A stretch of 64,000 bases of DNA, from contig CM082594.2 of NCBI GenBank assembly GCA_040954595.2, forward strand, positions 1,382,247-1,446,246, given 5' to 3'. Origin of the DNA: Balanoglossus misakiensis (lineage: Eukaryota > Animalia > Hemichordata). The position numbers were made by a program, and so were the translations under genes. Every line of letters starts with the position of its first letter. Positions within the stretch are counted from its first letter, which is position 1. This document shows, piece by piece, positions 16,792 through 43,907 of the stretch. The notes beneath the pieces are model-generated. The model had not been told where the DNA came from. It ran no database searches and was given only the letters and a program-made list of their open reading frames with translations.

Positions 16792-16971
16792 GAGAATGTC
16801 AAGATCCTGGTACACCAGTCAACGGTCAGAGACATGGCAATGATTTCGACATTGGTTCTATAGTGTCATTCAGTTGTGACTATGGATTCACACCAAGCCA
16901 TCCAAACCCTTTGATGTGTGAAGGAGATGTTGTGACTGTGTTGCCAACAACACCTTCTACTACAACTACTG
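16792..16971 (+). CDS. N-terminal three quarters of a split CCP domain
   Basis: ECQDPGTPVNGQRHGNDFDIGSIVSFSCDYGFTPSHPNPLMC then Thr-rich sequence; the W...P.C ending is absent. Confidence 0.85.
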
Positions 16972-17180
16972 GTGTGTATATACTGTTGTTATAAACATCG
17001 TGGTGTGCTGAAACAGTACCGTGATAACTTCTATGTTCATGTAGTGTGATATATGGAGAAATGGTTCAGAATGCCCGCTTCCAAAACAACAGAGAGGCTT
17101 TAAAAGCTATTTGAATGTTGAAGTGAAACTTGACAAACAGAATTCAATCAGCATAACCTCTATTGCCTCCATTGTCATAG

Positions 17181-18240
17181 AAACGGAAACGGTCACAGAC
17201 ATGTCAACTGCAGAGCTTGGGACGACAGAAATGGATGGAACTGATAGAGCGGCAACAGAAGAGGAAGAAGTGACCACATTGCGGATGAAAATCTCCACAG
17301 CAGCTGCAGACACAGATGTTATGAGAACCACCAAGAGAGCACAGACAGATGGCATGGTAACCACAACGGCAAAAGTACACACAGATGATGTGGCAACCAC
17401 GGCGACAAAAGTACACACAGATGATTTGGTAACCACGACGGCAAGAGTACACACTGATGCTCAAACAAGAGATGCAACAGGTACGTCAAGTACAAACATC
17501 CACTGAATATCTGAAAACAATATGACAAGTTTACTTTACAGATGTCCTCTCAGTGGAAGTGAAAGTATCTCATTTCTTTTAATTGTGGATTTTTGGTTTC
17601 TCATTTGTTAGCATAATGAAAAGCTGTATAATACAGGGGTCACCATGCTTGAATTTAGTCATGGCCTTGTGTAGTTGAAAAACAAACAAACAGCTGAGTC
17701 AGCATTTCTTCACCCAAAAACATTTAACGATATTTATCTCTGAATAGACTGTGGTGACCATACAATTTTATTTGACCAATGAATTTATTTTCATTTAACT
17801 GAGCTAAATTGTCATGAAAATGACAATAGTAGTGAGTTTATATCAATCTAATCCCATGCGAAGAGACAAATGTGCACGAATTTGCGCAGTTTACAAGTTT
17901 ACGTTCTGTGTGTACATCAGTAATAGGTTGTGTAGCAAAATGTAGCAATAAAATCCAAATTCCATTCCAGTCAAGTTATTTATCATATAGTTATATTAAA
18001 TAATTGATATTAAATAATCATTAGTGAGATCTATGGAATCTCACATATTTTAATGCAGAATGACTTGATTTCCATATGCAGGTTATGAGGCGCCATCAAC
18101 GCAGGCAATCACTGTGACTGAAAGAAAACCAACGACAGATTCAGATAAAGAATTTACAACATCTGAAACTACTAGTGCACCACTTTCAACTAAAATATCA
18201 ACAACAAAACCAGTGACACCTTCTCATGATGTATCAACAG
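17181..18240 (+). CDS. Thr-rich mucin-like exons 17181-17480 and 18082-18240
   Basis: Phase 1-1, 300 and 159 nt; TTTAKVHTDD-type repeats. Confidence 0.8.
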
Positions 18241-18940
18241 GTAATTATACTGTGTATTCGTATAATTCGTATTCATATCAGTATTTGTCCTTTTATTGCC
18301 ACAATTTAAGAAAGGAATATATTTTGTGGCAGAGAAATGGTAAATACTTAATACCGTATACCAGTATATCTAATTTTTTACATTGGCAATATGGAGCAAG
18401 AAACATAGCATAGCGCTAGTCAAGTCTTGCCCCATTGTCACATATATAGTAAAAAATATACATTGCAATTACTGAACAATATTATGGCTTCTGCTGAATG
18501 TGTGTGTGTACCGATAAACTGTGCATATTGACTGGCAGTGAGGGCAACAGCATACATTTGTTTCCCTAAGGGACTGTGAGTCAACCCAGAACAGTCTGTT
18601 TCTAGAGGCTGAAGGCCGATGGAAACAGATTGTTTTGGGGGTAATTTGCATTCCCGAGGGGACACAAACGTATGCTGTTATCCGAACATGGCTAGTCGAT
18701 ATGTGTTTCAGTATCAGAAAGCAGCACAAATCAGGAAATTTCTCTTCTGTACATCATCAATTGGTCTTCATTGTAGATGGTATATCACCACTGTACAAGG
18801 TCCCATACCTGTAAATAAATGATAAAAGCTTACACACAAACACATTTCACCAGATTAGAAAATGTACCACACAAACCCATTTTAGGATATTAACTCTTCT
18901 TGCAGCAAAGAATATCTTGCTTGTGTTGTTGATTTTGCAG

Positions 18941-20274
18941 TCAGTAGGGATTGTGGAACCTTTGAGACTTTTGTAAACGCAACTTGTGAGAAGTACATTG
19001 AGACACCAACTGATGGTACCTGTTCATTTGGAACATTCTACACAAGTATGGTTGCTGGTATGGCCAATTTTCAAGATTCACATGTAAGTATAAAGTTAGT
19101 TCTTGAAAGTCTATGTACCGGTAAATGTTTTGCTCCAGTGTCAATACTGACCAGATTGTCTCCAATTTCTCATTGTGATTTGTAACATTGTTATGAATGA
19201 TTTTATTTTGTCTTGTTTTATGTGTTGCACTGTATTTTTTTAAATTTCTCACCCAAGATTGATTTAATCACTAAATGTACTTGAAAAAAACTGCATACTG
19301 TAGTTTTTCCAGTGTTGTCTAAAGGAGTTTTTTGGTTTGTGTAATTGCAGGTTTGCGGGCAATGCCTGAACGTGATTGGTTCAAATGATGTATCTGTAGT
19401 TGTCCGGGTAACAGACATGTGCATGTACCCGTACTGCATGAGTGATGAAGATGGTCTGGTTCTAAGTCAGGATGCTTACAACATCTTGTCAGATGGTGAA
19501 AGTCCTTCATCTCTTCTTGTATCCTACTCAGTTGTTGCCTGTCCTGAGGATGTCTCTATCAAGTTCAAGGTTTTTGAAACAACACAATTATTCACTAATT
19601 TAGATACCCTTTTCTTTAATTGCTACTTAAAAGTAAATATTTCCTGTAGTTGTCACATCACTGCAAAATTGTTTGAAACCTCACTAGCCACATTTTAAAT
19701 AGTATTTGTAAGATTGAAGTTAAAATTGTCAGGAGTGGTCCATCTGTTTCTTTACTGGAAGTTTAGATCTCTTGGAAATCAAACCAGTCTCAACTGATTT
19801 GGACTAGGGCAGATCCAGTGGGGACTAGGACATTGACAATAATGTGTTGCTCTAATTTCAAAATATTATGACCGACTAGGGACTGTCATTCATTTTTTGA
19901 GTGTACCACATTTTGATTGATTGATTTGTTGATTTAGTTTGCAGAGAGCATTTCTGCATCATTCAGCTTATTAATATTGGATCATCGTTACCCTGTCACC
20001 ACTGTGGAAGTCCACACAACTGGTCTCTGGATTACTCTAGACAGACTCAGTGATAACTTATTTGAACCACCCATTGGTTCTGGTGATATACAAGCCCCTC
20101 TCAATGTCAAGGTCTATTCGGTGTCTGGTAAAATTAACTACAGGGTTAGAGAGTTTCATTTTGGTGGGATTATTGACACCTCCAAGCAATTTCAACATTG
20201 TGAGGATGATGAGCTTGAAGTTACTACACTTCCAGACTTTGGAATAGTTACAACAATCGAGAGTACGCTTGAAG
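18941..20274 (+). CDS. Expansin-like module 1 (intact), exons 18941-19083, 19351-19569, 19938-20274
   Basis: DGTCSFG...VCGQCLNVIG...VRVTDMC..PYC...GLVLS.DAY...VACP...LDHRYPVTTVEV...W.TLDR..DNLF...PLNVKV...IIDTSKQF. Confidence 0.8.
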
Positions 20275-20512: not shown

Positions 20513-21459
20513 ATGAGATGCAATCTACTCAGGAGGGTCCAACAACATTGCCTGGGTACATTACAACCCGGGGGCCTGAGACTGATTCCTTCACCAGTCG
20601 GTCTACAAGAACTGAAGTGACAAGTGGTACAACAGTTTCATCTGAAGAGATCACAACTGGTCTCCACTCGACCACCCATGTTATAGTCACAGATCAGGAT
20701 GAAGTCAGCTCAGCAATATCTGAGACTTTCACAACGTCAACTCTGTCAACAACAAGCGTCAATCCAACCATATACTTTCAACAGTTGAAGATGAAGAAGA
20801 CACAACCACAGAAACAACATCAAGAACTGATATAGGCCCAACTGCAACAGATGTAACAAGTGCTGAAAGAGCAACTACTGATATCAAGCCTAACCCAACA
20901 ACAGTCGAGCCTGAAGTCACGCCTGATGTTACAGAATATGAAATCAGGTCAACAGAATCAAAGACAAGAATAGTAACAGATGTAGATACAAGTACATCCC
21001 TGCCTACAACTAGTGTCCAAGAACTGACCACCAAACGCACCGAATTTCAATCGAAATCTTCAGAACCACTTTCATCTAAAATATCAACAACAGAGTCTGC
21101 AAGTGTCAATCCAACCATACTTTCAACAGTTGAAGATGAAGAAGACACAACCACAGAGAGAACAGATATAGGCCCAACTGCAACAGATGTAACAAAAGTG
21201 CTCAAAGAGGAACAACTGACATCAAGCCTAACCCTACAACAGCTGAGCCAGTCACACCTGATGTTACAAAGTCTTTGACAACAGAATATGAAATCAGGTC
21301 AACAGAATCCAAAACAAGTACATCCCTGCCTACAACTAGTGTCAAAGAACTGACCACCGAACGCACTGAATTTCAATCGAAATCTTCAGAACCACTTTCA
21401 ACAACTAAAATATCAACAACAAAACCAGTGACACCTTCTCATGATGTAACAATTAACAG
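20513..21459 (+). CDS. Thr/Ser-rich mucin exon, frameshifted, with internal duplication
   Basis: 947 nt. Extra 2, 2 and 4 nt at ~20770, ~21195 and ~21452 relative to the intact paralogous exon 37630-38241. Confidence 0.75.
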
Positions 21460-21799: not shown

Positions 21800-24700
21800 T
21801 CAGTAAAGATTGTGATACCTTTGAGACTTTTGTAAACGCAACTTGTGAGAAGTACCGTGAGACACCAACTGATGGTACCTGTTCATTTGGAACATTTTAC
21901 ACAAGTATGGTTGCTGGTATGGCCAATTTTCAAGATTTACATGTAAGTATAGATAACGTTAGTTCTGAAAGTCCTTGTACATGATTGGCTGTGATGTCAA
22001 TACTGACCAGATAGTCTCTCATTTTGAGTCATTGTGATTTGTAACAACTTTTGTTATGAATAATTTTATTTCATCGTGTTTGTCTAAGTTTGTGTGTTGC
22101 ACTGTTTTTCTTTGAAATTTCCTCAGCTTAATTTGATTAAGCACTTAAACCAAAACCTGCAGTGTTGTCTAAAGAAGGAGTTAGTTGGTTTGTTGAAATA
22201 GTATACATGCATTTTGATACCTTCATGTGTGATTGCAGGTTTGTGGGCAATGCCTGAACGTGATTGGTTCAAATGATGCATCTGTAGTTGTCCGGGTAAC
22301 AGACATGTGCATGTACCCATACTGCATGATTGATGAAGATGGTCTGGTTCTAAGTGGGGATGCTTACAACATCTTGTCAGATGGTGAAAGTCCTTCATCT
22401 CTTCTTGTATCCTACTCAGTTGTTGCCTGTCCTGAGGATGTCTCTATCAAGTTCAAGGTTTGTGAAACAACACAAGTATTAACTAATTTAGATACCCTTG
22501 TCTTAAATTGCTACTTAAAAGTAAATATTCACTTGTAGTTGTCTTATCACTGCAAAATTGTTTGAAACCTCACAAGCCATCTTCTTAACAGTATTTTTAA
22601 CTCATGATTGTCTATGGGGCCGAGCCTCAACGCATATACACAAACTTTGTGTGTGTGGACACAATGCTCTGAGTTTATCATAGGCAAATAGTGTCTCACA
22701 TTTTTCTCTGTGTGAACCTGGTATGTGTCATTCATTTTGTGAGTGTATCACATATTGATTGATTGATTTGTTTATTTAGTTTGCAGAGAGCATTTCTGCA
22801 TCATTCAGCTTATTAACCCTCTTGCTACCGGGGGTCAAAACCCGTTGGGCCGCCGACTCGTTACGAGACCGCCTCTACACCCGCTGGATTACCAGGCTTT
22901 TTGCCTGAAAATTGGGTTTTTGGAGGGTCATTTTAGCTGCTTTTGAACGTGCTAGACTTCAAGTTTGGCACAGTCCCGTGTCGGCGGGACCTCAAACAAC
23001 AATTAACCGGGTAAAAGTTGTGGGGTCATCGGGTTCGTTCCCCTGGGAGGGGAGCGTCTGTAAACGTCGTTTCGAGGCTTACTTTTACGAAAATAAAGTT
23101 AGTGTGTTAGTACACGCCACATCACGTCACAACAACGACACCATCAGTTATTAGTAGGGTACCCAGGGTGTACCGCCAGGGGTGTTCGGGCACCCCTTCC
23201 CCTGCCACTTTCCTGTAGGGTACGAGTTAGTTCGACACGTAATGCGAACGACTGGACACTGGCGCACAGTGTTCCGCTCTACAGCCGCCTGACAACGACT
23301 CATTCTCGCACACAAGACACACACGGACGTTGTGATAACGACACGTTGGTTAGTTACGCACAGTAGACAGACGTTCATTACGGTGTTAATACGCTATAGT
23401 TTTTTATGGTACAGGGTTGTACCGACACGGTCACAGGTAACCCGCAAGTTCTGCAGGCCCCATTGCACCATTTCGGCCAGGGGCGAGTGTCGAACCGGAC
23501 GACTATTTACACAAGACCCCCGTTACTGTGCGTCATATTAGAGGGATTAACACCACCACAGGTTGCCTCATAAATAGCACTTTATTTCCTAAAAAAGAGT
23601 GATTCGTGCACCGTTACAGTAACATCATACAATCCGTGTTTCAGTGTTTGCAAGTAACCTGTCCGTTTCTCACAGTCTGTGTTTCATTGTCCGTAAATGA
23701 GGCTCAGTCACCTCGTAGCCCTACTCAAGGGCATAATTTAGTGGGGGTCCACAGAAAAAAATGACTAAAGTCCGCGCAACGGGGCTCGTTCAAGACAAGC
23801 CCATGTCACAATCCGTGTTTCAGTGTCCGCAAGTAACCTGTCCGTTTCTCACAGTCCGTGTTTCATTGTCCGTAAATGAGGCTCGGTCACCTCGTAGCCC
23901 TACTCAAGGGCATAATTTAGTGGGGGTCCACAGAAAAAAATGACTAAAGTCCGCGCAAACGGGGCTCGTTCAAGACGAGCCCATGTCACAATCCGTGTTT
24001 CAGTGTCCGCAAGTAACCTGTCCGTTTCTCACAGTCCGTGTTTCATTGTCCGTAAATGAGGCTCGGTCACCTCGTAGCCCTACTCAAGGGCATAATTTAG
24101 TGGGGGTCCACAGAAAAAAATGACTAAAGTCCGCACAAATGCCAGGGCTGGTTCACCGGAAGCCCGTGTCACCCTCTCGGGAGGGGAATAATTTAGGAAT
24201 GGTCCGTGTTTCTGGAACTTCGCCGGAGCGGTTTGTCCCGTCTCGGCTGCCGAACTCGCACATCTCCTTCTGGAAACTGTGTCCCGATGCTCTTCTTTCC
24301 TCGTAGCATCATATGGTGGTGGAACGAGGCGAAGCATTCTCCTTGATGCAAATGCACTTGGCAGAGCGCACATCCCATGACAGTCTCCGAACGCCGTCCA
24401 GAAAGGGTCCTCTTGCCTTCCCTACTGCATAGCTTGCAGGTTTTCTGCCGTCCAGGTAATCTACTTTCGACGTGTTGGGGTATGTTTCCAGGGAAAATGA
24501 AAGAGCTGTCAGTAACTGTGCGCTCTATTTCCCGTACGTTGCCTTGACCACGACTGGTGAATCCGCCAATGAGTTGCTTCCCAACACGTAGGTTGAAGAA
24601 CTTGTGCTTCACCTTGGTCTGGGGGTTAAGGTCTTTGAAACATACGTAAGCATTCGTCAATGCTACATCCATCAGGTACCAGGCCATGTATACCCACCAG

Positions 24701-27700
24701 CGGTTGTTCTTTCGCCCACAGTGGTAGTATTTTCGCTTCTGGTTAGCGCGGTCAACGCCTCCCATGAAGACGCGGTACTTCGACAAACTCAGGGGCACAT
24801 TTCTCTCTTCCTCACCACTGCCAACTGTCTCCGTGTCAATTAGTGGATAAACGTTGTTCAGGATCAACACCTGTGCATTGCTATCCTGATAAGCTGCCAG
24901 GTTGATTCGGCAATCGACTCGGGTGGCTGCCTTCATTTCACCGACCTTCAGTGGAAGCTTCTTCTTTTTCCCGGGGGGAATAAGCATGGGCGGCATACTC
25001 CGATGGTTACGTCGGTTGAAGCTTCCAACCATATACATGCCCATCTCCATCAGTTCTCTCGCAGTTAACACAGTTGTGAAGAGGCTGTCACAGAAGAGGA
25101 TGTGGTTGTACCCGCAGAACGGCTGAACAAGTTCAATCGTTATTCTTTTCACCACTCCCCTCTCCTGTTTTTTCCCGTCATTCCTGTCAAGGTACTTCAC
25201 CCCCAGGTAGGGAGCAAAGTTTGCCACATAGGATGTGACAGAGTCCGCCAACTGCCATACCTTAAAGCCGTCTCTGTCTGGCTTGTGGGGAAGCCTCTGT
25301 TTGAATTTCGAACGTCCTTTGAACTTCACCATGCCTTCATCGATGGAGATTTCCTGTCCCATCTGATAGCTGTGTACGCAACTGTTTACAAGGGGCTCCA
25401 TCCATGGGTTTACTTTATACATTGGGTCGTCCTGACAACGGCGTGACCGTCTGTTCGGGTCAGGGTCTCGTCTTGGATCCTTCTGGGGGTCAGCCAAGTG
25501 GAAATACCGCATCAACCTGTGGTAGCGTTGACGGGTCATGACTGACGAAATGCCAACATTATGCAGGAAAATGTCGCTGGACCAATGGTCGCCCACAGCA
25601 GGCTTGCGGTCAATGCCCATGATGATGACAACGCCCAGGAAGGCTTGCATCTCTCTGTAATTGGTCGCTCGCCACTCAGAGTCGATTTTCTTTGCGATGT
25701 AATGCTGGTGATACGACGCATATTTGTTCGTTTCCTTCACCGCCAGAGATATCATGTCCGGTGATACAAATTTCAGGAAGTATTCCAACTCCCGTGCATG
25801 TGTTGCCATAGTAAACGTGGGTCCACGCTCTTTCTCGAACAGGGGTTCGGAAAATATCTCAGTGTCCTCATGCTGCGAAAGACGCCACTCGTCCCCATCC
25901 TTGGAGGCCTGCCGTATGGCCTCTTCTATTACGGCTTCATTCTCGGAGTCGGACTCCTCAGATGGAGTACCAGGAAATGACAGCTCGTAAAAGTTATCGT
26001 CCTCTGCCGCATCCTCATCAATGTCCGTCACGTTTCCCTCATCCTCCTCAAGGTCATCATCAGGCCGTCTATATCGGAACAAGCCTGTTTTGGCGTCCAA
26101 AATCTTTTCGGGCTCAAACTCAGGTGGACTGTAGCGCACCTTTTTTTTACTGCTTTCTTGGATGATCCCACCTTCCCAGTGGAAGTCGAGGCGACTGCCT
26201 GATGAGGGCTCATCTGAGCAGCAGATGGCACTTCTGGGGAGGTCTCGTGACTATCATCTGTCGTACATGGGGTCACTGGCGGGGAACTGGCTGGTTCGCC
26301 CGCCTCTGGGGTCGTCTGATCGCTCCCGCGTGGAACTTCTGTCGGGGTACTGGCTGGTTCGCCCGCCTTCGCAGTCACCTCATCACTCCTGGGTGGAGCT
26401 TCTGTCTCACCGTCCGAGTCGACAACGGGTCGATCGGACTTGCGCTTACGTTTCCCGCCAGACTTCTGCTGCTTACTGGATTGTAAGTCAGCCTCTGAAG
26501 TCACCTCGTCACTCCTGGGTGGAGCTTCTGTCGGGGTACTGGCTGGTTCGCCCGCTTCCGCAGTCACCTCATCACTCCGGGGTGGAGCTTCTGTCTCATC
26601 GGCCGAGTCGACAACGGGTCGACTGGACTTGCGCTTACGTTTCCCGCCAGGCTTCTCCGTCTCCTCAAATCTGACGCTCAAAAGGCGTTTCTTTGCCTTC
26701 TTTTTCTTGGCCTTTCCCTTCCTAACAGGGGAGTCTACATCATAGCGATCGCTGCCCGTTCCACTGGATTCCGGGTTCCGAATCTTTCGGGTTGCCTTCA
26801 AAAAACTCTTTCGGTCCGTCAAACTCATGGTCTGTAGTGGTACTGACAAAACTGTCCACGAAACACCCCTTTTATTAGCAGTCGCACATGAACCTGTGAC
26901 AGGCGTTCTCCCATCTAATTGGACGCCTAATATATAGGTACGCAAACACGTGACACAAAAATATGTCCGCAGGCAATCGGACCTATGGGGCTCCTCAAAA
27001 TTCCCGCCAGAAATGGAAATCTGGAACGGCAATTTGCGTAACAATACAGAAAGTATTGATCGACCATGACGTTAAAATTTCGCATCTGTGCGGCCTAAGC
27101 AGAACTCATGTCCCCTATGTTACGCAAATGCAAGGCACGCCTTTCGCCCGTGTCTGTACATACCCCTCGGTAACACGCAGCACCGAGGAACCGTTACGGC
27201 ACACACCCGTCCAATTCACCAGCCTGAGTTACAGGCATCCGCACACTGTGTCGTTCTCTAATGGTGAGTAACGCAAAACCCACCGGACCGAGAGCGTATT
27301 CGTCGGCTTTGTTTACGTCAAAATGCACACCCAGTTGCTTTTTACACACTCGTGCCGCTGGCTACGCAAAGCCAAGTCCCGTCAAAACCTGTCCGATCCA
27401 ATGTGTCGCGAACCGGGGTGTAAACGACGAGTTGGTCTACATCGTCGGCCGTTACGTCAAAATGCACACCCAGTCGCTTTTTACACACTTGTGCCGCTGG
27501 CTACGCAAAGCCGAGGTCCCGTCAAAACCTGTCCGATCCAATGTGTCGCGAACCGGGGTGTAAACGACGAGTCGGTCTACATCGTCGGCCGTTACGTCAA
27601 AATGCACACCCAGTCGCTTTTTACACACTCGTGCCGCTGGCTACGCAAAGCCAAGTCCCGTCAAAACCTGTCCGATCCAATGTGTCGCGAACCGGGGTGT

Positions 27701-28692: not shown

Positions 28693-28930
28693 GTAAGATT
28701 GTGTTTCAGTTTCATAGTTTAGGTCCCGTTTGGTATATACCAGTATACATGTATACTATACCATGGGACCTTATGGGATCAGTTTAGTCTGTCTGTATGT
28801 ATGTACTGTAAAACGGGTTATTTTCGTGATGGGAAATTTGTTTGCGATATCAATGGAGGCAATTGTTATTATGCGAGGATTAATTTTTGCATTTGCTTAT
28901 TTTCTTCATGTTTCATTTCTGCCAAAACAG

Positions 28931-29877
28931 ATGAGATGCAATCTACTCAGGAGGGTCCAACAACATTGCCTGGGTACATTACAACCCGGGGGCCTGAGAC
29001 TGATTCCTTCACCAGTCGGTCTACAAGAACTGAAGTGACAAGTGGTACAACAGTTTCATCTGAAGAGATCACAACTGGTCTCCACTCGACCACCCATGTT
29101 ATAGTCACAGATCAGGATGAAGTCAGCTCAGCAATATCTGAGACTTTCACAACGTCAACTCTGTCAACAACAAGCGTCAATCCAACCATATACTTTCAAC
29201 AGTTGAAGATGAAGAAGACACAACCACAGAAACAACATCAAGAACTGATATAGGCCCAACTGCAACAGATGTAACAAGTGCTGAAAGAGCAACTACTGAT
29301 ATCAAGCCTAACCCAACAACAGTCGAGCCTGAAGTCACGCCTGATGTTACAGAATATGAAATCAGGTCAACAGAATCAAAGACAAGAATAGTAACAGATG
29401 TAGATACAAGTACATCCCTGCCTACAACTAGTGTCCAAGAACTGACCACCAAACGCACCGAATTTCAATCGAAATCTTCAGAACCACTTTCATCTAAAAT
29501 ATCAACAACAGAGTCTGCAAGTGTCAATCCAACCATACTTTCAACAGTTGAAGATGAAGAAGACACAACCACAGAGAGAACAGATATAGGCCCAACTGCA
29601 ACAGATGTAACAAAAGTGCTCAAAGAGGAACAACTGACATCAAGCCTAACCCTACAACAGCTGAGCCAGTCACACCTGATGTTACAAAGTCTTTGACAAC
29701 AGAATATGAAATCAGGTCAACAGAATCCAAAACAAGTACATCCCTGCCTACAACTAGTGTCAAAGAACTGACCACCGAACGCACTGAATTTCAATCGAAA
29801 TCTTCAGAACCACTTTCAACAACTAAAATATCAACAACAAAACCAGTGACACCTTCTCATGATGTAACAATTAACAG
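28931..29877 (+). CDS. Mucin exon duplicate (frameshifted)
   Basis: Copy of 20513-21459 at +8418. Confidence 0.75.
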
Positions 29878-30217: not shown

Positions 30218-33200
30218 TCAGTAAAGATTGTGATACCTTTGAGACTTTTGTAAACGCAACTTGTGAGAAGTACCGTGAGACACCAACTGATGGTACCTGT
30301 TCATTTGGAACATTTTACACAAGTATGGTTGCTGGTATGGCCAATTTTCAAGATTTACATGTAAGTATAGATAACGTTAGTTCTGAAAGTCCTTGTACAT
30401 GATTGGCTGTGATGTCAATACTGACCAGATAGTCTCTCATTTTGAGTCATTGTGATTTGTAACAACTTTTGTTATGAATAATTTTATTTCATCGTGTTTG
30501 TCTAAGTTTGTGTGTTGCACTGTTTTTCTTTGAAATTTCCTCAGCTTAATTTGATTAAGCACTTAAACCAAAACCTGCAGTGTTGTCTAAAGAAGGAGTT
30601 AGTTGGTTTGTTGAAATAGTATACATGCATTTTGATACCTTCATGTGTGATTGCAGGTTTGTGGGCAATGCCTGAACGTGATTGGTTCAAATGATGCATC
30701 TGTAGTTGTCCGGGTAACAGACATGTGCATGTACCCATACTGCATGATTGATGAAGATGGTCTGGTTCTAAGTGGGGATGCTTACAACATCTTGTCAGAT
30801 GGTGAAAGTCCTTCATCTCTTCTTGTATCCTACTCAGTTGTTGCCTGTCCTGAGGATGTCTCTATCAAGTTCAAGGTTTGTGAAACAACACAAGTATTAA
30901 CTAATTTAGATACCCTTGTCTTAAATTGCTACTTAAAAGTAAATATTCACTTGTAGTTGTCTCATCACTGCAAAATTGTTTGAAACCTCACAAGCCATCT
31001 TCTTAACAGTATTTTTAACTCATGATTGTCTATGGGGCCGAGCCTCAACGCATATACACAAACTTTGTGTGTGTGGACACAATGCTCTGAGTTTATCATA
31101 GGCAAATAGTGTCTCACATTTTTCTCTGTGTGAACCTGGTATGTGTCATTCATTTTGTGAGTGTATCACATATTGATTGATTGATTTGTTTATTTAGTTT
31201 GCAGAGAGCATTTCTGCATCATTCAGCTTATTAACCCTCTTGCTACCGGGGGTCAAAACCCGTTGGGCCGCCGACTCGTTACGAGACCGCCTCTACACCC
31301 GCTGGATTACCAGGCTTTTTGCCTGAAAATTGGGTTTTTGGAGGGTCATTTTAGCTGCTTTTGAACGTGCTAGACTTCAAGTTTGGCACAGTCCCGTGTC
31401 GGCGGGACCTCAAACAACAATTAACCGGGTAAAAGTTGTGGGGTCATCGGGTTCGTTCCCCTGGGAGGGGAGCGTCTGTAAACGTCGTTTCGAGGCTTAC
31501 TTTTACGAAAATAAAGTTAGTGTGTTAGTACACGCCACATCACGTCACAACAACGACACCATCAGTTATTAGTAGGGTACCCAGGGTGTACCGCCAGGGG
31601 TGTTCGGGCACCCCTTCCCCTGCCACTTTCCTGTAGGGTACGAGTTAGTTCGACACGTAATGCGAACGACTGGACACTGGCGCACAGTGTTCCGCTCTAC
31701 AGCCGCCTGACAACGACTCATTCTCGCACACAAGACACACACGGACGTTGTGATAACGACACGTTGGTTAGTTACGCACAGTAGACAGACGTTCATTACG
31801 GTGTTAATACGCTATAGTTTTTTATGGTACAGGGTTGTACCGACACGGTCACAGGTAACCCGCAAGTTCTGCAGGCCCCATTGCACCATTTCGGCCAGGG
31901 GCGAGTGTCGAACCGGACGACTATTTACACAAGACCCCCGTTACTGTGCGTCATATTAGAGGGATTAACACCACCACAGGTTGCCTCATAAATAGCACTT
32001 TATTTCCTAAAAAAGAGTGATTCGTGCACCGTTACAGTAACATCATACAATCCGTGTTTCAGTGTTTGCAAGTAACCTGTCCGTTTCTCACAGTCTGTGT
32101 TTCATTGTCCGTAAATGAGGCTCAGTCACCTCGTAGCCCTACTCAAGGGCATAATTTAGTGGGGGTCCACAGAAAAAAATGACTAAAGTCCGCGCAACGG
32201 GGCTCGTTCAAGACAAGCCCATGTCACAATCCGTGTTTCAGTGTCCGCAAGTAACCTGTCCGTTTCTCACAGTCCGTGTTTCATTGTCCGTAAATGAGGC
32301 TCGGTCACCTCGTAGCCCTACTCAAGGGCATAATTTAGTGGGGGTCCACAGAAAAAAATGACTAAAGTCCGCGCAAACGGGGCTCGTTCAAGACGAGCCC
32401 ATGTCACAATCCGTGTTTCAGTGTCCGCAAGTAACCTGTCCGTTTCTCACAGTCCGTGTTTCATTGTCCGTAAATGAGGCTCGGTCACCTCGTAGCCCTA
32501 CTCAAGGGCATAATTTAGTGGGGGTCCACAGAAAAAAATGACTAAAGTCCGCACAAATGCCAGGGCTGGTTCACCGGAAGCCCGTGTCACCCTCTCGGGA
32601 GGGGAATAATTTAGGAATGGTCCGTGTTTCTGGAACTTCGCCGGAGCGGTTTGTCCCGTCTCGGCTGCCGAACTCGCACATCTCCTTCTGGAAACTGTGT
32701 CCCGATGCTCTTCTTTCCTCGTAGCATCATATGGTGGTGGAACGAGGCGAAGCATTCTCCTTGATGCAAATGCACTTGGCAGAGCGCACATCCCATGACA
32801 GTCTCCGAACGCCGTCCAGAAAGGGTCCTCTTGCCTTCCCTACTGCATAGCTTGCAGGTTTTCTGCCGTCCAGGTAATCTACTTTCGACGTGTTGGGGTA
32901 TGTTTCCAGGGAAAATGAAAGAGCTGTCAGTAACTGTGCGCTCTATTTCCCGTACGTTGCCTTGACCACGACTGGTGAATCCGCCAATGAGTTGCTTCCC
33001 AACACGTAGGTTGAAGAACTTGTGCTTCACCTTGGTCTGGGGGTTAAGGTCTTTGAAACATACGTAAGCATTCGTCAATGCTACATCCATCAGGTACCAG
33101 GCCATGTATACCCACCAGCGGTTGTTCTTTCGCCCACAGTGGTAGTATTTTCGCTTCTGGTTAGCGCGGTCAACGCCTCCCATGAAGACGCGGTACTTCG

Positions 33201-36200
33201 ACAAACTCAGGGGCACATTTCTCTCTTCCTCACCACTGCCAACTGTCTCCGTGTCAATTAGTGGATAAACGTTGTTCAGGATCAACACCTGTGCATTGCT
33301 ATCCTGATAAGCTGCCAGGTTGATTCGGCAATCGACTCGGGTGGCTGCCTTCATTTCACCGACCTTCAGTGGAAGCTTCTTCTTTTTCCCGGGGGGAATA
33401 AGCATGGGCGGCATACTCCGATGGTTACGTCGGTTGAAGCTTCCAACCATATACATGCCCATCTCCATCAGTTCTCTCGCAGTTAACACAGTTGTGAAGA
33501 GGCTGTCACAGAAGAGGATGTGGTTGTACCCGCAGAACGGCTGAACAAGTTCAATCGTTATTCTTTTCACCACTCCCCTCTCCTGTTTTTTCCCGTCATT
33601 CCTGTCAAGGTACTTCACCCCCAGGTAGGGAGCAAAGTTTGCCACATAGGATGTGACAGAGTCCGCCAACTGCCATACCTTAAAGCCGTCTCTGTCTGGC
33701 TTGTGGGGAAGCCTCTGTTTGAATTTCGAACGTCCTTTGAACTTCACCATGCCTTCATCGATGGAGATTTCCTGTCCCATCTGATAGCTGTGTACGCAAC
33801 TGTTTACAAGGGGCTCCATCCATGGGTTTACTTTATACATTGGGTCGTCCTGACAACGGCGTGACCGTCTGTTCGGGTCAGGGTCTCGTCTTGGATCCTT
33901 CTGGGGGTCAGCCAAGTGGAAATACCGCATCAACCTGTGGTAGCGTTGACGGGTCATGACTGACGAAATGCCAACATTATGCAGGAAAATGTCGCTGGAC
34001 CAATGGTCGCCCACAGCAGGCTTGCGGTCAATGCCCATGATGATGACAACGCCCAGGAAGGCTTGCATCTCTCTGTAATTGGTCGCTCGCCACTCAGAGT
34101 CGATTTTCTTTGCGATGTAATGCTGGTGATACGACGCATATTTGTTCGTTTCCTTCACCGCCAGAGATATCATGTCCGGTGATACAAATTTCAGGAAGTA
34201 TTCCAACTCCCGTGCATGTGTTGCCATAGTAAACGTGGGTCCACGCTCTTTCTCGAACAGGGGTTCGGAAAATATCTCAGTGTCCTCATGCTGCGAAAGA
34301 CGCCACTCGTCCCCATCCTTGGAGGCCTGCCGTATGGCCTCTTCTATTACGGCTTCATTCTCGGAGTCGGACTCCTCAGATGGAGTACCAGGAAATGACA
34401 GCTCGTAAAAGTTATCGTCCTCTGCCGCATCCTCATCAATGTCCGTCACGTTTCCCTCATCCTCCTCAAGGTCATCATCAGGCCGTCTATATCGGAACAA
34501 GCCTGTTTTGGCGTCCAAAATCTTTTCGGGCTCAAACTCAGGTGGACTGTAGCGCACCTTTTTTTTACTGCTTTCTTGGATGATCCCACCTTCCCAGTGG
34601 AAGTCGAGGCGACTGCCTGATGAGGGCTCATCTGAGCAGCAGATGGCACTTCTGGGGAGGTCTCGTGACTATCATCTGTCGTACATGGGGTCACTGGCGG
34701 GGAACTGGCTGGTTCGCCCGCCTCTGGGGTCGTCTGATCGCTCCCGCGTGGAACTTCTGTCGGGGTACTGGCTGGTTCGCCCGCCTTCGCAGTCACCTCA
34801 TCACTCCTGGGTGGAGCTTCTGTCTCACCGTCCGAGTCGACAACGGGTCGATCGGACTTGCGCTTACGTTTCCCGCCAGACTTCTGCTGCTTACTGGATT
34901 GTAAGTCAGCCTCTGAAGTCACCTCGTCACTCCTGGGTGGAGCTTCTGTCGGGGTACTGGCTGGTTCGCCCGCTTCCGCAGTCACCTCATCACTCCGGGG
35001 TGGAGCTTCTGTCTCATCGGCCGAGTCGACAACGGGTCGACTGGACTTGCGCTTACGTTTCCCGCCAGGCTTCTCCGTCTCCTCAAATCTGACGCTCAAA
35101 AGGCGTTTCTTTGCCTTCTTTTTCTTGGCCTTTCCCTTCCTAACAGGGGAGTCTACATCATAGCGATCGCTGCCCGTTCCACTGGATTCCGGGTTCCGAA
35201 TCTTTCGGGTTGCCTTCAAAAAACTCTTTCGGTCCGTCAAACTCATGGTCTGTAGTGGTACTGACAAAACTGTCCACGAAACACCCCTTTTATTAGCAGT
35301 CGCACATGAACCTGTGACAGGCGTTCTCCCATCTAATTGGACGCCTAATATATAGGTACGCAAACACGTGACACAAAAATATGTCCGCAGGCAATCGGAC
35401 CTATGGGGCTCCTCAAAATTCCCGCCAGAAATGGAAATCTGGAACGGCAATTTGCGTAACAATACAGAAAGTATTGATCGACCATGACGTTAAAATTTCG
35501 CATCTGTGCGGCCTAAGCAGAACTCATGTCCCCTATGTTACGCAAATGCAAGGCACGCCTTTCGCCCGTGTCTGTACATACCCCTCGGTAACACGCAGCA
35601 CCGAGGAACCGTTACGGCACACACCCGTCCAATTCACCAGCCTGAGTTACAGGCATCCGCACACTGTGTCGTTCTCTAATGGTGAGTAACGCAAAACCCA
35701 CCGGACCGAGAGCGTATTCGTCGGCTTTGTTTACGTCAAAATGCACACCCAGTTGCTTTTTACACACTCGTGCCGCTGGCTACGCAAAGCCAAGTCCCGT
35801 CAAAACCTGTCCGATCCAATGTGTCGCGAACCGGGGTGTAAACGACGAGTTGGTCTACATCGTCGGCCGTTACGTCAAAATGCACACCCAGTCGCTTTTT
35901 ACACACTTGTGCCGCTGGCTACGCAAAGCCGAGGTCCCGTCAAAACCTGTCCGATCCAATGTGTCGCGAACCGGGGTGTAAACGACGAGTCGGTCTACAT
36001 CGTCGGCCGTTACGTCAAAATGCACACCCAGTCGCTTTTTACACACTCGTGCCGCTGGCTACGCAAAGCCAAGTCCCGTCAAAACCTGTCCGATCCAATG
36101 TGTCGCGAACCGGGGTGTAAACGACGAGTCGGTCTACATCGTCGGCCGTTACGTCAAAATGCACACCCAGTCGTTTTTACACACTTGTGCCGCTGGCTAC

Positions 36201-37110
36201 GCAAGCCAAGTCCCGTCAAAGCCTGTCCGTACCAAGTTTTCTTTCACGAGTAATTGTAGGCTACGAGTCGGTCGCGAAAGATATGGCCTGCGACGCACGC
36301 ACGCCAAGACGTCGGTCATCGGTTCGCACCATCGGCAAAAATCGTCATGTTTTCCCGAGTCGATCCCAAAACGCACTCTCCTAAACAGGCACCCACGAGT
36401 GCGTCCGACACGTCTGGCCATCGAAAAGGTTGATACCCTATGTCGTTGTGGAATCGTCTGCTATGGAAAACTATGCATCGCTGTCAATTACGTTTTTGCG
36501 GACACATAAAAAACGGTCTCCCCAGGGTCGGAATGACCGGCGGAATTTGCCTCTAAGGATAGTGTGCTATTTGTAGTTCAAGGCAAATAACCCTGTCGAG
36601 ACTTTCCTGTCCTAACAGATTTTGCCCTCAAAACGGTAGTTCAAAGACAACCCGTTATAGCGAAGCGCACGCAAACGCCTAGAGACTCCAGCGGGTCGGT
36701 GAATCATATCGATTCATACCGATTAGGTCATTCATCACTCGCCAACGTTCGACTTCTACCCACACCGGAAATCGGGCGGTCTGCTACGGACTCGACAGCG
36801 TTAGGGTTAATATTGGATCATCGTTACCCTGTCACCACTGTGGAAGTCCACACAACTGGTCCCTGGATTACTCTAGACAGACTCAGTGATAACTTATTTG
36901 AACCACCCATTGGTTCTGGTGATATACAAGCCCCTCTCAATGTCAAGGTCTATTCGGTGTCTGGTAAAATTAACTACAGGGTTAGAGAGTTTCAGTTTGG
37001 TGAGATTATTGACACCTCCAAGCAATTTCGACATTGTGAGGATGATGAGCTTGAAGTTACTACACTTCCAGACTTTGGAATAGTTACAACAATCGAGAGT
37101 ACGCTTGAAG
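30218..37110 (+). CDS. Expansin-like module 3, exons 30218-30360, 30657-30875, 31198-31234/36811-37110 (piggyBac-interrupted)
   Basis: Copy of module 2 at +8418. Confidence 0.8.
32611..34557 (-). CDS. piggyBac transposase ORF2, copy 2
   Basis: Identical translation to 24193-26139. Confidence 0.95.
   Translation of the reverse strand: MRYSPPEFEPEKILDAKTGLFRYRRPDDDLEEDEGNVTDIDEDAAEDDNFYELSFPGTPSEESDSENEAVIEEAIRQASKDGDEWRLSQHEDTEIFSEPLFEKERGPTFTMATHARELEYFLKFVSPDMISLAVKETNKYASYHQHYIAKKIDSEWRATNYREMQAFLGVVIIMGIDRKPAVGDHWSSDIFLHNVGISSVMTRQRYHRLMRYFHLADPQKDPRRDPDPNRRSRRCQDDPMYKVNPWMEPLVNSCVHSYQMGQEISIDEGMVKFKGRSKFKQRLPHKPDRDGFKVWQLADSVTSYVANFAPYLGVKYLDRNDGKKQERGVVKRITIELVQPFCGYNHILFCDSLFTTVLTARELMEMGMYMVGSFNRRNHRSMPPMLIPPGKKKKLPLKVGEMKAATRVDCRINLAAYQDSNAQVLILNNVYPLIDTETVGSGEEERNVPLSLSKYRVFMGGVDRANQKRKYYHCGRKNNRWWVYMAWYLMDVALTNAYVCFKDLNPQTKVKHKFFNLRVGKQLIGGFTSRGQGNVREIERTVTDSSFIFPGNIPQHVESRLPGRQKTCKLCSREGKRTLSGRRSETVMGCALCQVHLHQGECFASFHHHMMLRGKKSIGTQFPEGDVRVRQPRRDKPLRRSSRNTDHS
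34446..35246 (-). CDS. piggyBac ORF1, copy 2
   Basis: Identical translation to 26028-26828. Confidence 0.7.
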   Translation of the reverse strand: MSLTDRKSFLKATRKIRNPESSGTGSDRYDVDSPVRKGKAKKKKAKKRLLSVRFEETEKPGGKRKRKSSRPVVDSADETEAPPRSDEVTAEAGEPASTPTEAPPRSDEVTSEADLQSSKQQKSGGKRKRKSDRPVVDSDGETEAPPRSDEVTAKAGEPASTPTEVPRGSDQTTPEAGEPASSPPVTPCTTDDSHETSPEVPSAAQMSPHQAVASTSTGKVGSSKKAVKKRCATVHLSLSPKRFWTPKQACSDIDGLMMTLRRMRET

Positions 37111-37629: not shown

Positions 37630-38241
37630 ACGAGATGCAATCTACTCAGGAGGGTCCAACAACATTGCCTGGGTACATTACAACCCGGGGGCCTGAGACT
37701 GATTCCTTCACCAGTCGGTCTACAAGAACTGAAGTGACAAGTGGAACAACAGTTTCATCTGAAGAGATCACAACTGGTATCCACTCGACCACCCATGTTA
37801 AAGTCACAGATCAGGATGAAGTCAGCTCAGCAATATCCGAGACTGTCACAACTGCAACTCTATCAACAACAAGCGTCAATCCTACGATACTTTCAACGAT
37901 GGAAGATGAAGAAGACACCACAGAAACAGCAACAAGAACTGATATAGGCCCAACTGCAACAGATGTAACAAGTGCTCAAAGAGCAACTACTGATATCAAG
38001 CCTAACCCAACAACAGCTGAGCCAGTCACACAAAAGTCTTTGACAACAGAATATGAAATCAGGTCAACAGAATCCAAAACAAGAATAGTAACAGATGTAG
38101 ATACAAGTACATCCCTGCCTACAACTAGTGTCCAAGAACTGACCACCGAACGCACTGAATTTCAATCGAAATCTTCGGAACCACTTTCAACTAAAATATC
38201 AACAACAAAACCAGTGACACCTTCTCATGATGTAACAACAG
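37630..38241 (+). CDS. Thr/Ser-rich mucin exon (intact, 612 nt)
   Basis: Open frame DEMQSTQEGPTT...SHDVTT; phase 1-1. Confidence 0.85.
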
Positions 38242-38620: not shown

Positions 38621-40143
38621 TCAGTAGAGATTGTGGAACCTTTGAGACTTTTGTAAATGCAACTTGTGAGAAGTACAGTGAGACACCAACTGATGGTACC
38701 TGTTCATTTGGAACATTTTACACAAGTATGGTTGCTGGTATGGCCAATTTTCAAGATTCACATGTAAGTATAGATAACGTTAGTTCTTGAAAGACTATGT
38801 ACATGATTGGCTGTGATGTCAATACTGACCGGATGGTCTGTCATTTCGAGTCATTGTGATTTGTAACAATTTTTGTTATGAATAATTTTATTTCATCTTG
38901 TTCGTTTTTGTGTGTTGCGCTGTTTTTTTAATTTTCTCAGCTAAGATTGATATAATCGCTTTGTATTTGAAGAAACCCTGCTGGCTTTAGTACTTCCAGT
39001 GTTGTCTAAAGAAGGAGATTTTGGTTTCTGTGATTGCAGGTTTGTGGGCAATGCCTGAACGTGATTGGTTCAAATGATGTATCTGTAGTTGTCCGGGTAA
39101 CAGACATGTGCATGTACCCGTACTGCATGATTGATGAAGATGGTCTGGTTCTAAGTGAGGATGCTTACAACATCTTGTCAGATGGTGAAAGTCCTTCATC
39201 TCTTTTTGTATCCTACTCTGTTATTGCCTGTCCTGAAGATGTCTCCATCAAGTTCAAGGTTTGTGAAACAAAACAATTATTAACTAATTAATATACCCTT
39301 GTCTTTAATTTTCACATCTTGGCGAACTTGTTTGAAACCTCCCTAGCCATTTTTTTAAGTATTTGTAAGATTGAAGTTTAAATTGTCAAGAGTATTCATC
39401 TGTTTCTTTACTGGAAGTTTAGATCTCCTGGAAATCAAACCAGTCTCAACTGATTTGGACAAGGGAAGATCCAGTGGGGACTAGGTCATTGACAATGATT
39501 TGTTGCAAATACTGTAAAACGGGAAATTTTCACGCCAGGAAATTTTCGCAATATCAAAAGAGGCAACTGTTACGCGAGGATTAATTTTGGCGTTCTTGTA
39601 TTTCACTAACTGCATCGTTAAATCACACGACATTTATTTTCACTTCTCTTTTAGATCTTGCGTATTTTGCGAAAATTTATGCTCGCGAAAATAACCCATT
39701 TTACAGTAAGTCTTGCTCTAAATTTCAAAGTATTAGGACCAACCAGGGACTGTGTTGTTCATCTTTTTAGTGTACTGCATATTGATTGATTGATTTGTTT
39801 ATTTAGTTTGCAGAGAGCATTTCTGCATCATTCAGCTTATTAATATTGGATCATCGTTACCCTGTCACCACTGTGGAAGTCCACACAACTGGTCCCTGGA
39901 TTACTCTAGACAGACTCAGTGATAACTTATTTGAACAACCCATTGGTTCTGGTGATATACAAGCCCCTCTCAATGTCAAGGTCTATTCGGTGTGTGGTAA
40001 AATTAACTACAGGGTTACAGACTTTGAGTTTGATGAGATTATTGACACCTCCAAGCAATTTCGACATTGTGAGGATGATGAGCTTGAAGTTACTACACTT
40101 CCAGACTTTGGAATAGTTACAACAATTGAGAGTACGCTTGAAG
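38621..40143 (+). CDS. Expansin-like module 4 (intact), exons 38621-38763, 39040-39258, 39807-40143
   Basis: Same exon lengths (143/219/337 nt) and motifs as module 1. Confidence 0.8.
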
Positions 40144-40690: not shown

Positions 40691-41913
40691 ATGAAACAAC
40701 GCTGGAATATTTAACTAGTCCCTACACCGAAGGCACAGAAAAAAGCATCTCAACTGATGGATATGCCATAACTTCGCCCAGAATGACAACTGTGTTGGAC
40801 ACAGACAATATACCGGCTGTGACAACTGGAAAAAGCAAGTCAACCACAACAGTTACTATGGTTACAGTAACCATGCCTGTTGTCGTGACAACAGTAGAGG
40901 CAAGTTCTGAAAAGCCTGATCAGCAGTCAAGCACAGAAGGTGAGGGTACATACAAGACAACATCTGCTCCGATCTCAAAAACAGAAATGATGTCAACAGC
41001 AGAATCTGTGGATATTACTCCTGCAGACCAGACTTCAGAGTATGACGATGCAAGTGATGTGATGCCAACAGAGTCATGGACCACACCAGAGAAATTGTTG
41101 ACAACAAACAAAATGGACGCCACCACACCAGAGACACTTTTGACAACAAATAAAATGGACGGCACCACAGAATATTGGCAAACGGTAGAAGGCACCACAG
41201 AATGGCAAACACAAATGATAACTGATGATACTGCCACTTCCCAAAGAAGAACAACAAGAAAACATACAACTGAGGCACCGATGATCTGTTAACATCAAAA
41301 GGTGAATGTATACGAATTTCTACACTTTTCAGCATTATGAGCTCCAAAGTAAGGATGAATCTTGTTTACTTAGTTGACACGACTCTAGCTCCTGGATGAC
41401 ACCATTATTTTTAGGGGGTGAGGGGTGGAAGAAAGGAGAAAACATATTCACTCCTCACTTTTTTTTCAAAGAAATGTAGGTTTACTTCCTATTATGATAA
41501 AGTAAACTATGAATAATAAAACATTGAAAATTTGGCTTTATTGATAGAAACTTCATGTACGGGTACAGTGAAAATTTCAATTGAAAAAAAAAAATCATAA
41601 TACCTGCAATGTAAACAGTTAAACAGTTATACATTGTTAGTTACCATCATCATCGTTGTTTGAATCAGACTCTATGTCACAAATGAGGCAATAACAATGC
41701 TCAGTGCAATTGATCTGTATACGGTTGGTCAAATAACTCTTCCACTCTTATCATATAGACACCCATGTCCAGTGTGTAATATAAAGTATTCATTCAATTT
41801 CATTTATACAGTATATCATGATGTCAGTACTAAACCAACTACGAAACCAGCAACAACTCTGAAAGCCACAACAGGTGGTCTTACGACCCTACCAACTCCA
41901 ACTCAACTACCAG
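40691..41913 (+). CDS. Thr-rich exons 40691-41301 (1 nt short, frameshift near 41277) and 41812-41913
   Basis: The 611-nt exon hits TAA at 41290-41292 just before the donor; TDDLLTSK lies in the shifted frame. Confidence 0.75.
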
Positions 41914-42336
41914 GTAAGAGATATTACCCTTAGTTTGGTTGATAACGTGTTGTACTTGAGTGATGTCTCAAAGTGTTAAAACAAAACATCCAGAAAACTT
42001 GTTTTTGGAAGTTAATTTAAATTGCTTGTCACATGACAGTTGTGTAAACAATGGTCACACCAAAATGTTCTCCTATATTTACTTTCAGAAAATATATACT
42101 TTTAGGGGATTCTCGATAATTAACAGAACTTGATAATTAACAGAGAAATGTTTATTTCAAAAAGTGATTTTTTTTCTTGTATCTTTCATACACACCATGA
42201 AGTAATAATACAGTTAAATTTAAAATCAGAATAAACCACAAAGAGTTGAACCCATTTATGCTTTGAACAAATTGACCTGAAGAGAATAGGAGTTGTATGG
42301 GTCTGTATTTACAATTATTCGATAATTACTTTGCAG

Positions 42337-43339
42337 ACCGTGACGTTCCTGACTACTGTGCACAGCTTAGTGTGTCATATAATGGTAGTGGGCAGATTAC
42401 AGACCAGCAATCCTGTGGCAACTACTATGGTACAGAAATAACAACACAACTTGTTAATGGTTTAACTCAACTCCTGTCTCAAGATCCATCAGGAGCATGT
42501 GTTCCTCTTGCTGGTCTGGTTACAATCAATATCGCATTATCCATAAGTCTCACCTCGCTATCGGATAATTCGGTGGGTACTCTAACTGTCTCTTTCAGTC
42601 TTGCAGAAAATCTTGTAGACTCTTTCTGGTGTCTAGAATATTACACTCAACAAATTGTTCACTTCATAGCATTTTATCTCACATGCTCTTCAGATTGCAT
42701 ATCCAAAGAAAAAATGCATATTGGGAGAATATTTTCATGCAAATGTGACAACCATGCGATGTTTAATTTTGTCGATACAATCGATCGTAAACTGCTCAGC
42801 TGAAACAGTGAGCAGTCATCTTTCTTTTTTGTTTACGTGCGTTGGAGTGGGGGTGTCTTGAAACCGTCCGCATAACAGTACATACCTGTACACGGTGAGT
42901 TGGGGCGCCTTGAAACTTAAGGCGTATTTAACACGCGTTCCGTACGTACCGTTCCGTATGGCTTTTTAGTACACGCTAAATTCTATTGTTCTTGGTGCCA
43001 GATGCATAATAATAAAGCATATTAAACATAACATCTTTTAAAACAAATGCTTATGACTGTATATTCATTACCTGCAGCTTTTAATGGATGTGGGGCTGAA
43101 CTTACTGATTGAACCCATAGACCCATTGAGCCCTGGATACGACAATGCAGAATTGTCGGGATGTGGTCTTCAACTAATCTTTTATCTGACCAACCATCCA
43201 AGTGTATTTCCAGTTTTGGTTGCCATTGACAGTTCAGACAATTGTCCAGAACTATCATCTTCTGCAAACCCAATTCAAGAAGATGATGCAACATTCTGTT
43301 GTCCTGAAGGATATGAGCTCTTCCAGAGTGTCAGATGCA
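42337..43339 (+). CDS. Extra copy of SEA-like Cys-containing domain, exons 42337-42572 and 43078-43339
   Basis: DVPDYC...SCGNYY...GCG...NCPELS...FCCPEGY..C parallels EVPDYC...QCISYY...TCG...ACPELN...CCCPSGK..C at 45757-47078. Confidence 0.7.
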
Positions 43340-43808
43340 GTATGTATAAAATCATTATTTTTATTCACACTAAAGTGGCGCTTATATCTCTTCTTTTCTT
43401 TTAAGGATGTACGCGCAGAACATAAACCGGAAAACTGCACGCACCCGTCTTTTTCCCATAGGATTACATTGATAATTGCTAGAAAACTAACTTCTTCTAT
43501 TGTCATTGTCACAAAATTTTCTACATAGCTCAGTCCAGTAAATATAAATTCATTGGTCACTTAAAATATAAGGGTCACCTTGCTCTATTTTGAGATAAAT
43601 TGCATTAAAAAAAAATTTGCCCATAGACAAACCATTGATGAAAAATGCTGAATCAGCAGTTTTCTTCTATTATCGACTAAATTCGTGACTCTGTAATGTG
43701 TATTTCATAAACAGGCACGGTCATCAGGTAAATGCATGCTATGAGCGGTGTGTTACAAGCATGAATTAAGTATTACTTACAGAAAAAAAATTCTTCTTAT
43801 TTCAACAG

Positions 43809-43907
43809 CAGCCGCAGTGGAAGTTGTGAGGAAAAGAAGGGATGCATCTGAACAGTCATCATTTCTCACTAATGCTAAATGGAATGGCACTGCACCTGTT
43901 TGTATTG
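43809..43907 (+). CDS. Furin site + C-terminal end of the split CCP
   Basis: VVRKRRDASEQSSFLTNAKWNGTAPVCI. Confidence 0.85.

Follow-up and report, generated by a model that had tools for sequence, protein, structure and literature searches.

Furin is known to cut inside single domains whose chains afterwards stay together, as in complement C3 (within MG6), the insulin receptor (the insert domain of FnIII-2), integrin alpha (a loop of calf-2) and Notch (site S1, within the SEA-like HD). The CCP (sushi) domain is a compact beta-sandwich of about 60 residues, closed by two standard disulfides, C1-C3 and C2-C4. Here we describe a CCP domain of the acorn worm Balanoglossus misakiensis whose first three cysteines and last strand are encoded about 27 kb apart, on either side of an exon cassette ending in a furin motif, and which may be cut in a comparable way. 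It lies in a stretch of 64,000 nucleotides (assembly GCA_040954595.2, contig CM082594.2, positions 1,382,247 to 1,446,246; hereafter the window), in a gene resembling Drosophila uninflatable (uif).

The whole window is occupied by this one intron-rich gene on the + strand, which codes for a large extracellular mosaic protein with its N- and C-termini outside the 64 kb. From CUB1 through the late Ephrin_rec_like repeats, its exons follow the order of a Ptychodera flava model (P0091, 4,527 amino acids), with identities mostly of 55-77%, and the top matches of a single pentraxin exon are Glandiceps and Saccoglossus proteins. This colinearity, together with domain scans of the homologues, gives the module order of the Uninflatable family: CLECT/LDLa, 3 CUB, CCPs, EGF, HYR, Ephrin_rec_like, an EGF array, LamG and a transmembrane helix. 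The sequence-only reading that preceded this work placed an insect discoidin (FA58C) domain at the position of the split; one FA58C of Drosophila Uif may follow a three-Cys CCP half. Drosophila Uif is described as a large apical protein that crosses the membrane once and has CLECT, three CUB, about 8 CCP, HYR and EGF repeats (PMC3340373, PMC12867482, PMC13178913), it carries two FA58C domains whose positions are not stated (PMC3340373), and a presumed cleavage site is mentioned for it (PMC12867482). A split CCP is not mentioned in the portions of these three papers that were consulted.

The hemichordate and mollusc homologues share the Uif module set and add LamG/pentraxin and Ephrin_rec_like repeats. 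They differ from the described Drosophila protein in carrying a loop of 1,100-2,300 amino acids (mucin, SEA-like, expansin) inside a CCP, and in that domain scans of six models (P0004, P0005, P0091, P0101, P0105 and P0112) found no FA58C (PF00754). As the module set matches Drosophila Uninflatable in all but the two FA58C domains, which were not found in the scanned models, we call the protein uif-like rather than Uif proper, an assignment by module set. SVEP1/polydom-like proteins also share the CCP-HYR junction and the Ephrin_rec_like, EGF and pentraxin modules, but the SVEP1-like control that showed the junction motif (P0087) has an undivided CCP ahead of HYR, unlike the uif-like family.

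One CCP domain in two halves

The upstream exon of the pair holds Cys1 to Cys3 and then runs into Thr-rich sequence (Table 1); its Pfam Sushi match (E 6.9e-6) is limited to positions 1-46 of 56. The downstream exon reads RKRR and then WNGTAPVC, and is followed directly by the HYR exon. From 16972 to 43808 the + frames contain no W-x(3,6)-P-x-C. Scored against a CCP profile of 54 positions, made with 150 intact CCPs taken from unrelated SVEP1/CSMD/CR1-like matches, the N-terminal half alone reaches 46.4 bits, and the two halves joined in silico reach 57.0 bits and fill positions 1-54; the four cysteines and the conserved Trp stand at CCP consensus spacing only after both exons are joined. The sequence-only reading had proposed this arrangement, with Trp and Cys4 appearing only behind RKRR, the two halves forming a single CCP by sequence, and the furin motif at the end of an intervening cassette of mucin, expansin-type and SEA-like exons, and in each of these respects it holds. 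Structure prediction gave a low-confidence AlphaFold2 model for the short Saccoglossus split CCP (mean predicted local distance difference test, pLDDT, 41.6, and below 50 over the CCP), and a complex prediction of the two window halves yielded no clear call (0.34 against 0.16 for the control). That one CCP is encoded here in two halves around a cassette seems to us, taken as anatomy alone, highly probable.

To place the locus in its family, we kept 17 homologue models from searches returning 81, 37 and 6 matches, with no insect protein among them, choosing the models by family architecture and a pre-HYR W..P-x-C-x-D and leaving out SVEP1, CSMD, hyalin-like proteins and fragments. Thirteen of them span the whole site, from 8 species (Saccoglossus, Ptychodera, Glandiceps, Gigantopelta, two Mytilus, Saccostrea and Magallana). 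All 13, from hemichordates and molluscs, have the three-Cys half directly after the last intact CCP and share the split; all 17 have the orphan W..P-x-C before HYR; and in 16 of the 17 an R-x-[KR]-R lies no more than 50 residues from the Trp strand, against a background of 0.022 per 50 residues. Among 11 control proteins the CCP-HYR junction was detectable in four, and was intact in all four. Loop length varies from 35 to 2,259 residues across nine measured homologues, in every one of which joining the halves adds 9-15 bits; for the 8 homologues with a loop of more than 60 amino acids, none of 200 random loop peptides equalled the true C-terminal half. The exon borders of the window recur in Saccoglossus, at the two CCP halves as well as at the two introns within each of its three expansins. 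In 90% clusters, all Ptychodera members (3 of 3) and all oyster members listed (15 of the 34) are full-length and so keep the loop, although a 90% cluster cannot show short forms.

Two separate genes would be the simplest way of dissolving the domain, a reading that we reject because single gene models run through the whole region in Saccoglossus, Ptychodera and the molluscs. The split CCP is a real and conserved arrangement, and cleavage by furin inside a domain, with a disulfide holding the pieces, is already known elsewhere. The main argument that the halves still meet is that Trp, Pro and Cys4 are kept at CCP spacing across molluscs and hemichordates.

Two further observations concern the sequence before the C-terminal half. 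In the crinoid Anneissia (P0016, a model without its N-terminus) EGF modules and a long acidic Thr repeat, within residues 1-800, come before the orphan C-terminal half; EGF is in this crinoid a putative loop cargo. Two other models (P0032, about residues 540-720, and P0028, residues 1-183) have a long Arg-rich spacer with many polybasic sites.

A proposed branched receptor and its alternatives

We favour a mechanism in which the split CCP still closes, furin cuts at RKRR, and the insert becomes a side arm held by Cys2-Cys4; judged from sequence, we consider it fairly probable as a whole. It builds on what is seen at the locus and in its homologues (the split, the intron phases, the conserved furin motif, the variable cargo and a paralogue with an empty slot), from which we infer the cleavage and the tether. 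The Cys1-3 half would wait through about 1,300 residues in the endoplasmic reticulum for its last strand, upon which C1-C3 and C2-C4 would form, and the Thr-rich parts would be O-glycosylated and stiffen. Furin would then open the loop in the Golgi, so that a long rigid insert need no longer lead back into a 60-residue domain. What had been a loop would now be a glycosylated side arm with a free end, while the N-terminal chain would remain bound to the membrane chain through C2-C4 and the shared sheet. The outcome would be a branched receptor, its arm carrying adhesion or recognition modules into mucus or the apical matrix. A furin-type motif, RRKR, also occurs in the membrane-proximal domain (exon at about 62984-63250), with a similar motif in the Saccoglossus, Ptychodera and mollusc homologues; being nearer the membrane, this second polybasic site would cut the chain again.

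As in C3, the insulin receptor, integrin alpha and Notch, the furin site would lie in an intradomain loop, with the chains joined by fold, by disulfide or by both. Unlike those proteins, the host here is a CCP of about 60 residues and the insert reaches about 2,300 residues of swappable exon modules, and the cut would yield a long side arm instead of a simple two-chain domain. We found no description in the open-licence literature of a CCP hosting inserts up to 40 times its own size with lineage-specific cargo.

The slot itself is seen empty in a Glandiceps paralogue (P0048), in which two exons separated by a single phase-1 intron of about 380 bp encode a 35-residue loop with two polybasic sites; the intron has no SEA-like or expansin match. 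Upstream of this paralogue's annotated start (locus L002, 8265-8721) there are tandem half-CCP matches in three frames, covering profile positions of about 12-44. Elsewhere the slot is filled differently, with three expansins and one SEA-like domain in Saccoglossus, two expansins and one SEA-like domain in Ptychodera, and mucin with four SEA-like domains detected in every full-length mollusc model, one Mytilus model also having a Ly6/uPAR domain in its loop. Expansin was not detected in any non-hemichordate protein of the scanned homologue set. By the logic of exon shuffling, phase 1-1 modules would readily insert into a phase-1 intron, and the comparison supports the view that the phase-1 intron position in the loop has filled with exon modules and that its contents change between lineages. 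The earlier suggestion of a slot with swappable contents is in this sense supported, as cargo differs between acorn worms and molluscs.

That suggestion also went further, making the slot one for carbohydrate-binding modules. On such a view expansin here and discoidin in insects would bring the arm to algal or sediment polysaccharide. The acorn-worm modules are indeed two-domain expansin homologues of about 210 amino acids, DPBB then CBM63. In a profile search they match the microbial expansin 7wvr at E 3e-17 (one Ptychodera module on its own gives E 6e-11), and with it and the other microbial EXLX proteins (Clavibacter 4jcw and BsEXLX1 2bh0; profile E 3e-17 to 6e-8) they share the DPBB-CBM63 order, CGxC, VxD and HRYPV; the D71-equivalent Asp is also kept, and Drosophila Uif has its two FA58C. 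They differ from the microbial proteins in being split by introns and embedded in a receptor, in their extra cysteines, and in not keeping D82 and the aromatic triad. In BsEXLX1, D82, W125, W126 and Y157 are reported as needed for loosening and binding (PMC5072189). The D82 equivalent (H/A-L-D-L-S), its position fixed by the D-to-N pair 4jcw/4js7, is Val in 6 and Ala in 1 of the 7 modules checked, the Y157 equivalent is Asp or Asn in all seven, and Trp occurs near W125/W126 in only one of seven, the 125/126 register being uncertain by one residue, with a Phe adjoining. It is likely, from these residues, that the modules do not act on cellulose as expansins usually do, by loosening or gripping it, although another ligand is possible, and that they act as non-loosening recognition or spacer modules. 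Moreover, no known sugar-binding module was found in the loops of the mollusc models scanned, where SEA-like and mucin sequences recur and one mussel model has Ly6. A slot specialised for carbohydrate binding is therefore unsupported, the recurring cargo being mucin and SEA-like domains, and we regard it as unlikely.

Contamination as a source of these expansins can be excluded, because their introns are shared across acorn-worm species. A search with a single expansin exon returned no homologue among 42 candidates, and we found no description of hemichordate expansins in the open-licence literature.

Were the two halves to part instead, furin at RKRR would shed the whole N-terminal half (lectin, CUBs, CCPs, mucin and expansins) as a secreted mucus protein, with spare cysteines linking molecules. 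The odd number of cysteines in several loops would suit such a product, and the multiple polybasic sites of the scallop and mussel models suggest thorough processing. Against shedding, Trp, Pro and Cys4 stand at CCP spacing in 17 of 17 models and Cys1-3 are kept in 13 of 13, which suggests selection for a joint fold, and the paralogue with the 35-residue loop is a near-ordinary CCP. Complete parting of the halves thus seems rather improbable.

The cassette might alternatively be spliced in and out, the main product being short (16971 joined to 43809, a CCP with a furin loop of about 40 amino acids) and the inner units decaying passengers. Since both flanking exons are phase 1, skipping would keep the frame; an older Saccoglossus model (P0004) leaves out precisely the cassette, and units 2 and 3 of the window are dead. 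On the other side, the cassette exons keep 55-68% protein identity and conserved intron positions relative to Ptychodera, which places them under selection, and the current Saccoglossus, Ptychodera and mollusc models include the cassette. We consider a mainly short product improbable.

A local pseudo-CCP is rejected as very improbable. In it the Trp/Cys4 strand would pair with the Cys-rich end of the SEA-like domain, coded by exon 43078-43339, leaving the upstream half as a degenerate orphan. That tail (CPEL...CCPEGYEL...VRC) does resemble C-x-x-G-Y-x-L-x(n)-C, but joined to the C-terminal half it covers profile positions 21-54 only and scores 18.0 bits, where the true join reaches 57; in seven homologues it scores 3-17 bits. 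The post-HYR copy closes with this tail too and has no Trp/Cys4 after it, and P0048 has both halves and no such tail.

Several points weigh against the branched receptor itself. The homologue evidence consists of annotated gene models, neither transcripts nor proteins, and the 13 spanning models are not independent, four representing one oyster gene and two one Saccoglossus gene; the older of the Saccoglossus models splices straight across the cassette. The crinoid P0016 has no furin motif near its Trp, its polybasic site lying about 615 residues upstream. Loop cysteine counts are odd (31 in P0005, 33 in each of P0105, P0106 and P0112, 27 in the window path), so another cysteine could compete for Cys2 or Cys4. 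Finally, the assembly shows two frameshifts in otherwise conserved exons and two dead units, so that either the splicing of an intact mRNA has to pass over about 17 kb of similar-looking exons or the allele is damaged.

The cassette in the window

All loop cassettes are phase 1-1, whether single mucin exons, three-exon expansin units (233 codons) or the two-exon SEA-like domain (Table 1). Four expansin modules had been counted from the sequence alone, and four units can indeed be located, but only units 1 and 4 are intact; four functional expansins are rejected, since units 2 and 3 each carry a piggyBac in their third exon and a frameshifted mucin exon before them (947 nt each, with indels of +2, +326 and +4 nt relative to the intact copy). 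Unit 3 belongs to a duplicate that differs from unit 2 by 1 mismatch across 20195-28726 (about 8.5 kb), and the duplication may be either very recent or an assembly artefact. Because units 2 and 3 are a broken unit and its duplicate, only units 1 and 4 count towards the intact path, whose exons add up to 3,680 nt and whose loop from C3 to Trp is about 1,270 residues long; the roughly 2000 codons proposed earlier are reached only by counting the dead units. Transposons make up 11,144 of the 26,837 bp between the halves.

Table 1. Features of the split CCP and its cassette, in window positions
Feature	Position	Strand	Remarks
CCP N-terminal half exon	16792..16971	+	phase 1-1, AG/GT; Cys1 16797, Cys2 16875, Cys3 16917, then start of Thr-rich loop
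Mucin-like exon A1	17181..17480	+	31% Ser+Thr; acceptor is the best of several candidates
Mucin-like exon A2	18082..18240	+	42% Ser+Thr
Expansin-like unit 1	18941..20274	+	intact; exons 18941-19083, 19351-19569, 19938-20274; 233 codons, phase 1-1 overall
Mucin exon B2	20513..21459	+	frameshifted (decayed)
Expansin-like unit 2	21800..28692	+	broken; exons 21800-21942, 22239-22457; third (22780-22816 + 28393-28692) split by piggyBac
piggyBac	22817..28388	-	5,572 bp; TTAA duplications 22813-16 and 28389-92; inside third exon of unit 2
Tandem duplicate of 19971-28388	28389..36806	.	8,418 bp; dead unit 3, mucin exon 28931-29877
Second, identical piggyBac copy	31235..36806	-	inside third exon of unit 3 (exon remainder 36811-37110)
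Mucin exon B4	37630..38241	+	intact; 41% Ser+Thr, 612 nt
Expansin-like unit 4	38621..40143	+	intact; exons 38621-38763, 39040-39258, 39807-40143
Mucin exon C	40691..41301	+	611 nt; one base out of frame in the assembly
Mucin exon D	41812..41913	+	short
SEA-like loop domain	42337..43339	+	exons 42337-42572, 43078-43339
Furin motif and CCP C-terminal half	43809..43907	+	RKRR 43829-43840; Trp 43880, Cys4 43901; phase 1-1
HYR domain exon	44587..44817	+	next after the split CCP; Pfam HYR, E 1.7e-7

The two frameshifts affect mucin exon C and the CCP exon (about 16196-16377) that immediately precedes the split CCP. For comparison we used contigs of one other individual, at about 3x depth and crossing introns. 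One of them has an extra base at 41281 that opens mucin exon C, so the shift there may be an assembly error or mark a damaged allele; the CCP exon, whose frame changes relative to Ptychodera, has no cover in these contigs. A near-perfect tandem duplication of 2,006 bp (4154-6164 / 6160-8170, 1 mismatch) doubles both third-CUB exons; it may be a recent copy-number change or an assembly artefact, the same doubt as for unit 3.

The SEA-like loop domain is an old paralogue of the domain following HYR (45758-47078), with identical intron phases. True SEA domains have a ferredoxin-like fold (beta-alpha-beta-beta-alpha-beta). The name of the loop domain comes from a low-confidence AlphaFold2 model (strand-helix-strand-strand-helix; pLDDT 49.0 for the SEA-like domain, C-terminal half and HYR together). 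No Pfam SEA match was found, fold searches with the model containing it matched only the Ig-like HYR part, a PDB profile search of its alignment gave nothing credible, and its profile matched no protein outside the uif-like family.

The element within units 2 and 3 has the hallmarks of piggyBac, namely TTAA target duplication, CCC...GGG ends and a DDD transposase, its ends being imperfect terminal repeats with subterminal arrays of repeats of about 180 bp and about 139 bp. The transposase frame is open (26250-24196, 685 codons; DDE_Tnp_1_7, E 8e-67), and a second open reading frame (27071-26031, 347 codons), rich in Lys and Arg, overlaps its start; to judge from the open frame, the element is possibly active. 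Its body (23072-24000) has no cover in the contigs of the other individual, which at that depth proves nothing. Introns elsewhere in the window contain a DUF3504/tyrosine-recombinase (Crypton-like) frame with one stop codon inside (60324-61955, + strand), a trinucleotide repeat with one frame coding for poly-His (57657-57745), and several families of short palindromic repeats resembling miniature inverted-repeat transposable elements (2341-2605, 2993-3357, 4895-5242, 10925-11192, 46143-46451 and others).

Meaning for the family

Chase et al. left open whether metazoan expansin genes are real or contamination (10.1101/637728). Intron-bearing expansins, with introns common to acorn-worm species, bear on that question.

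The split CCP predicts processing in the Uif family and explains miscounts of CCPs in domain scans. With inserts of 35 to more than 2,200 residues tolerated by a domain of 60, whose folding would have to await the last strand, this is domain insertion at its extreme. As a route to branched surface proteins it can be tested directly. We tentatively suggest, as a possibility held with some doubt, that since the protostome-deuterostome ancestor the split, furin-opened CCP of uif-like proteins has served as a branch-point socket, to which lineages would have fitted arms of their own, built in molluscs from SEA-like, mucin and Ly6 modules, in acorn worms from domesticated expansins of microbial type and in insects from discoidin. 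If this is true, it would be a general way of encoding a branched protein in one gene, and the split CCP would be the site at which a foreign expansin entered the animal glycocalyx.

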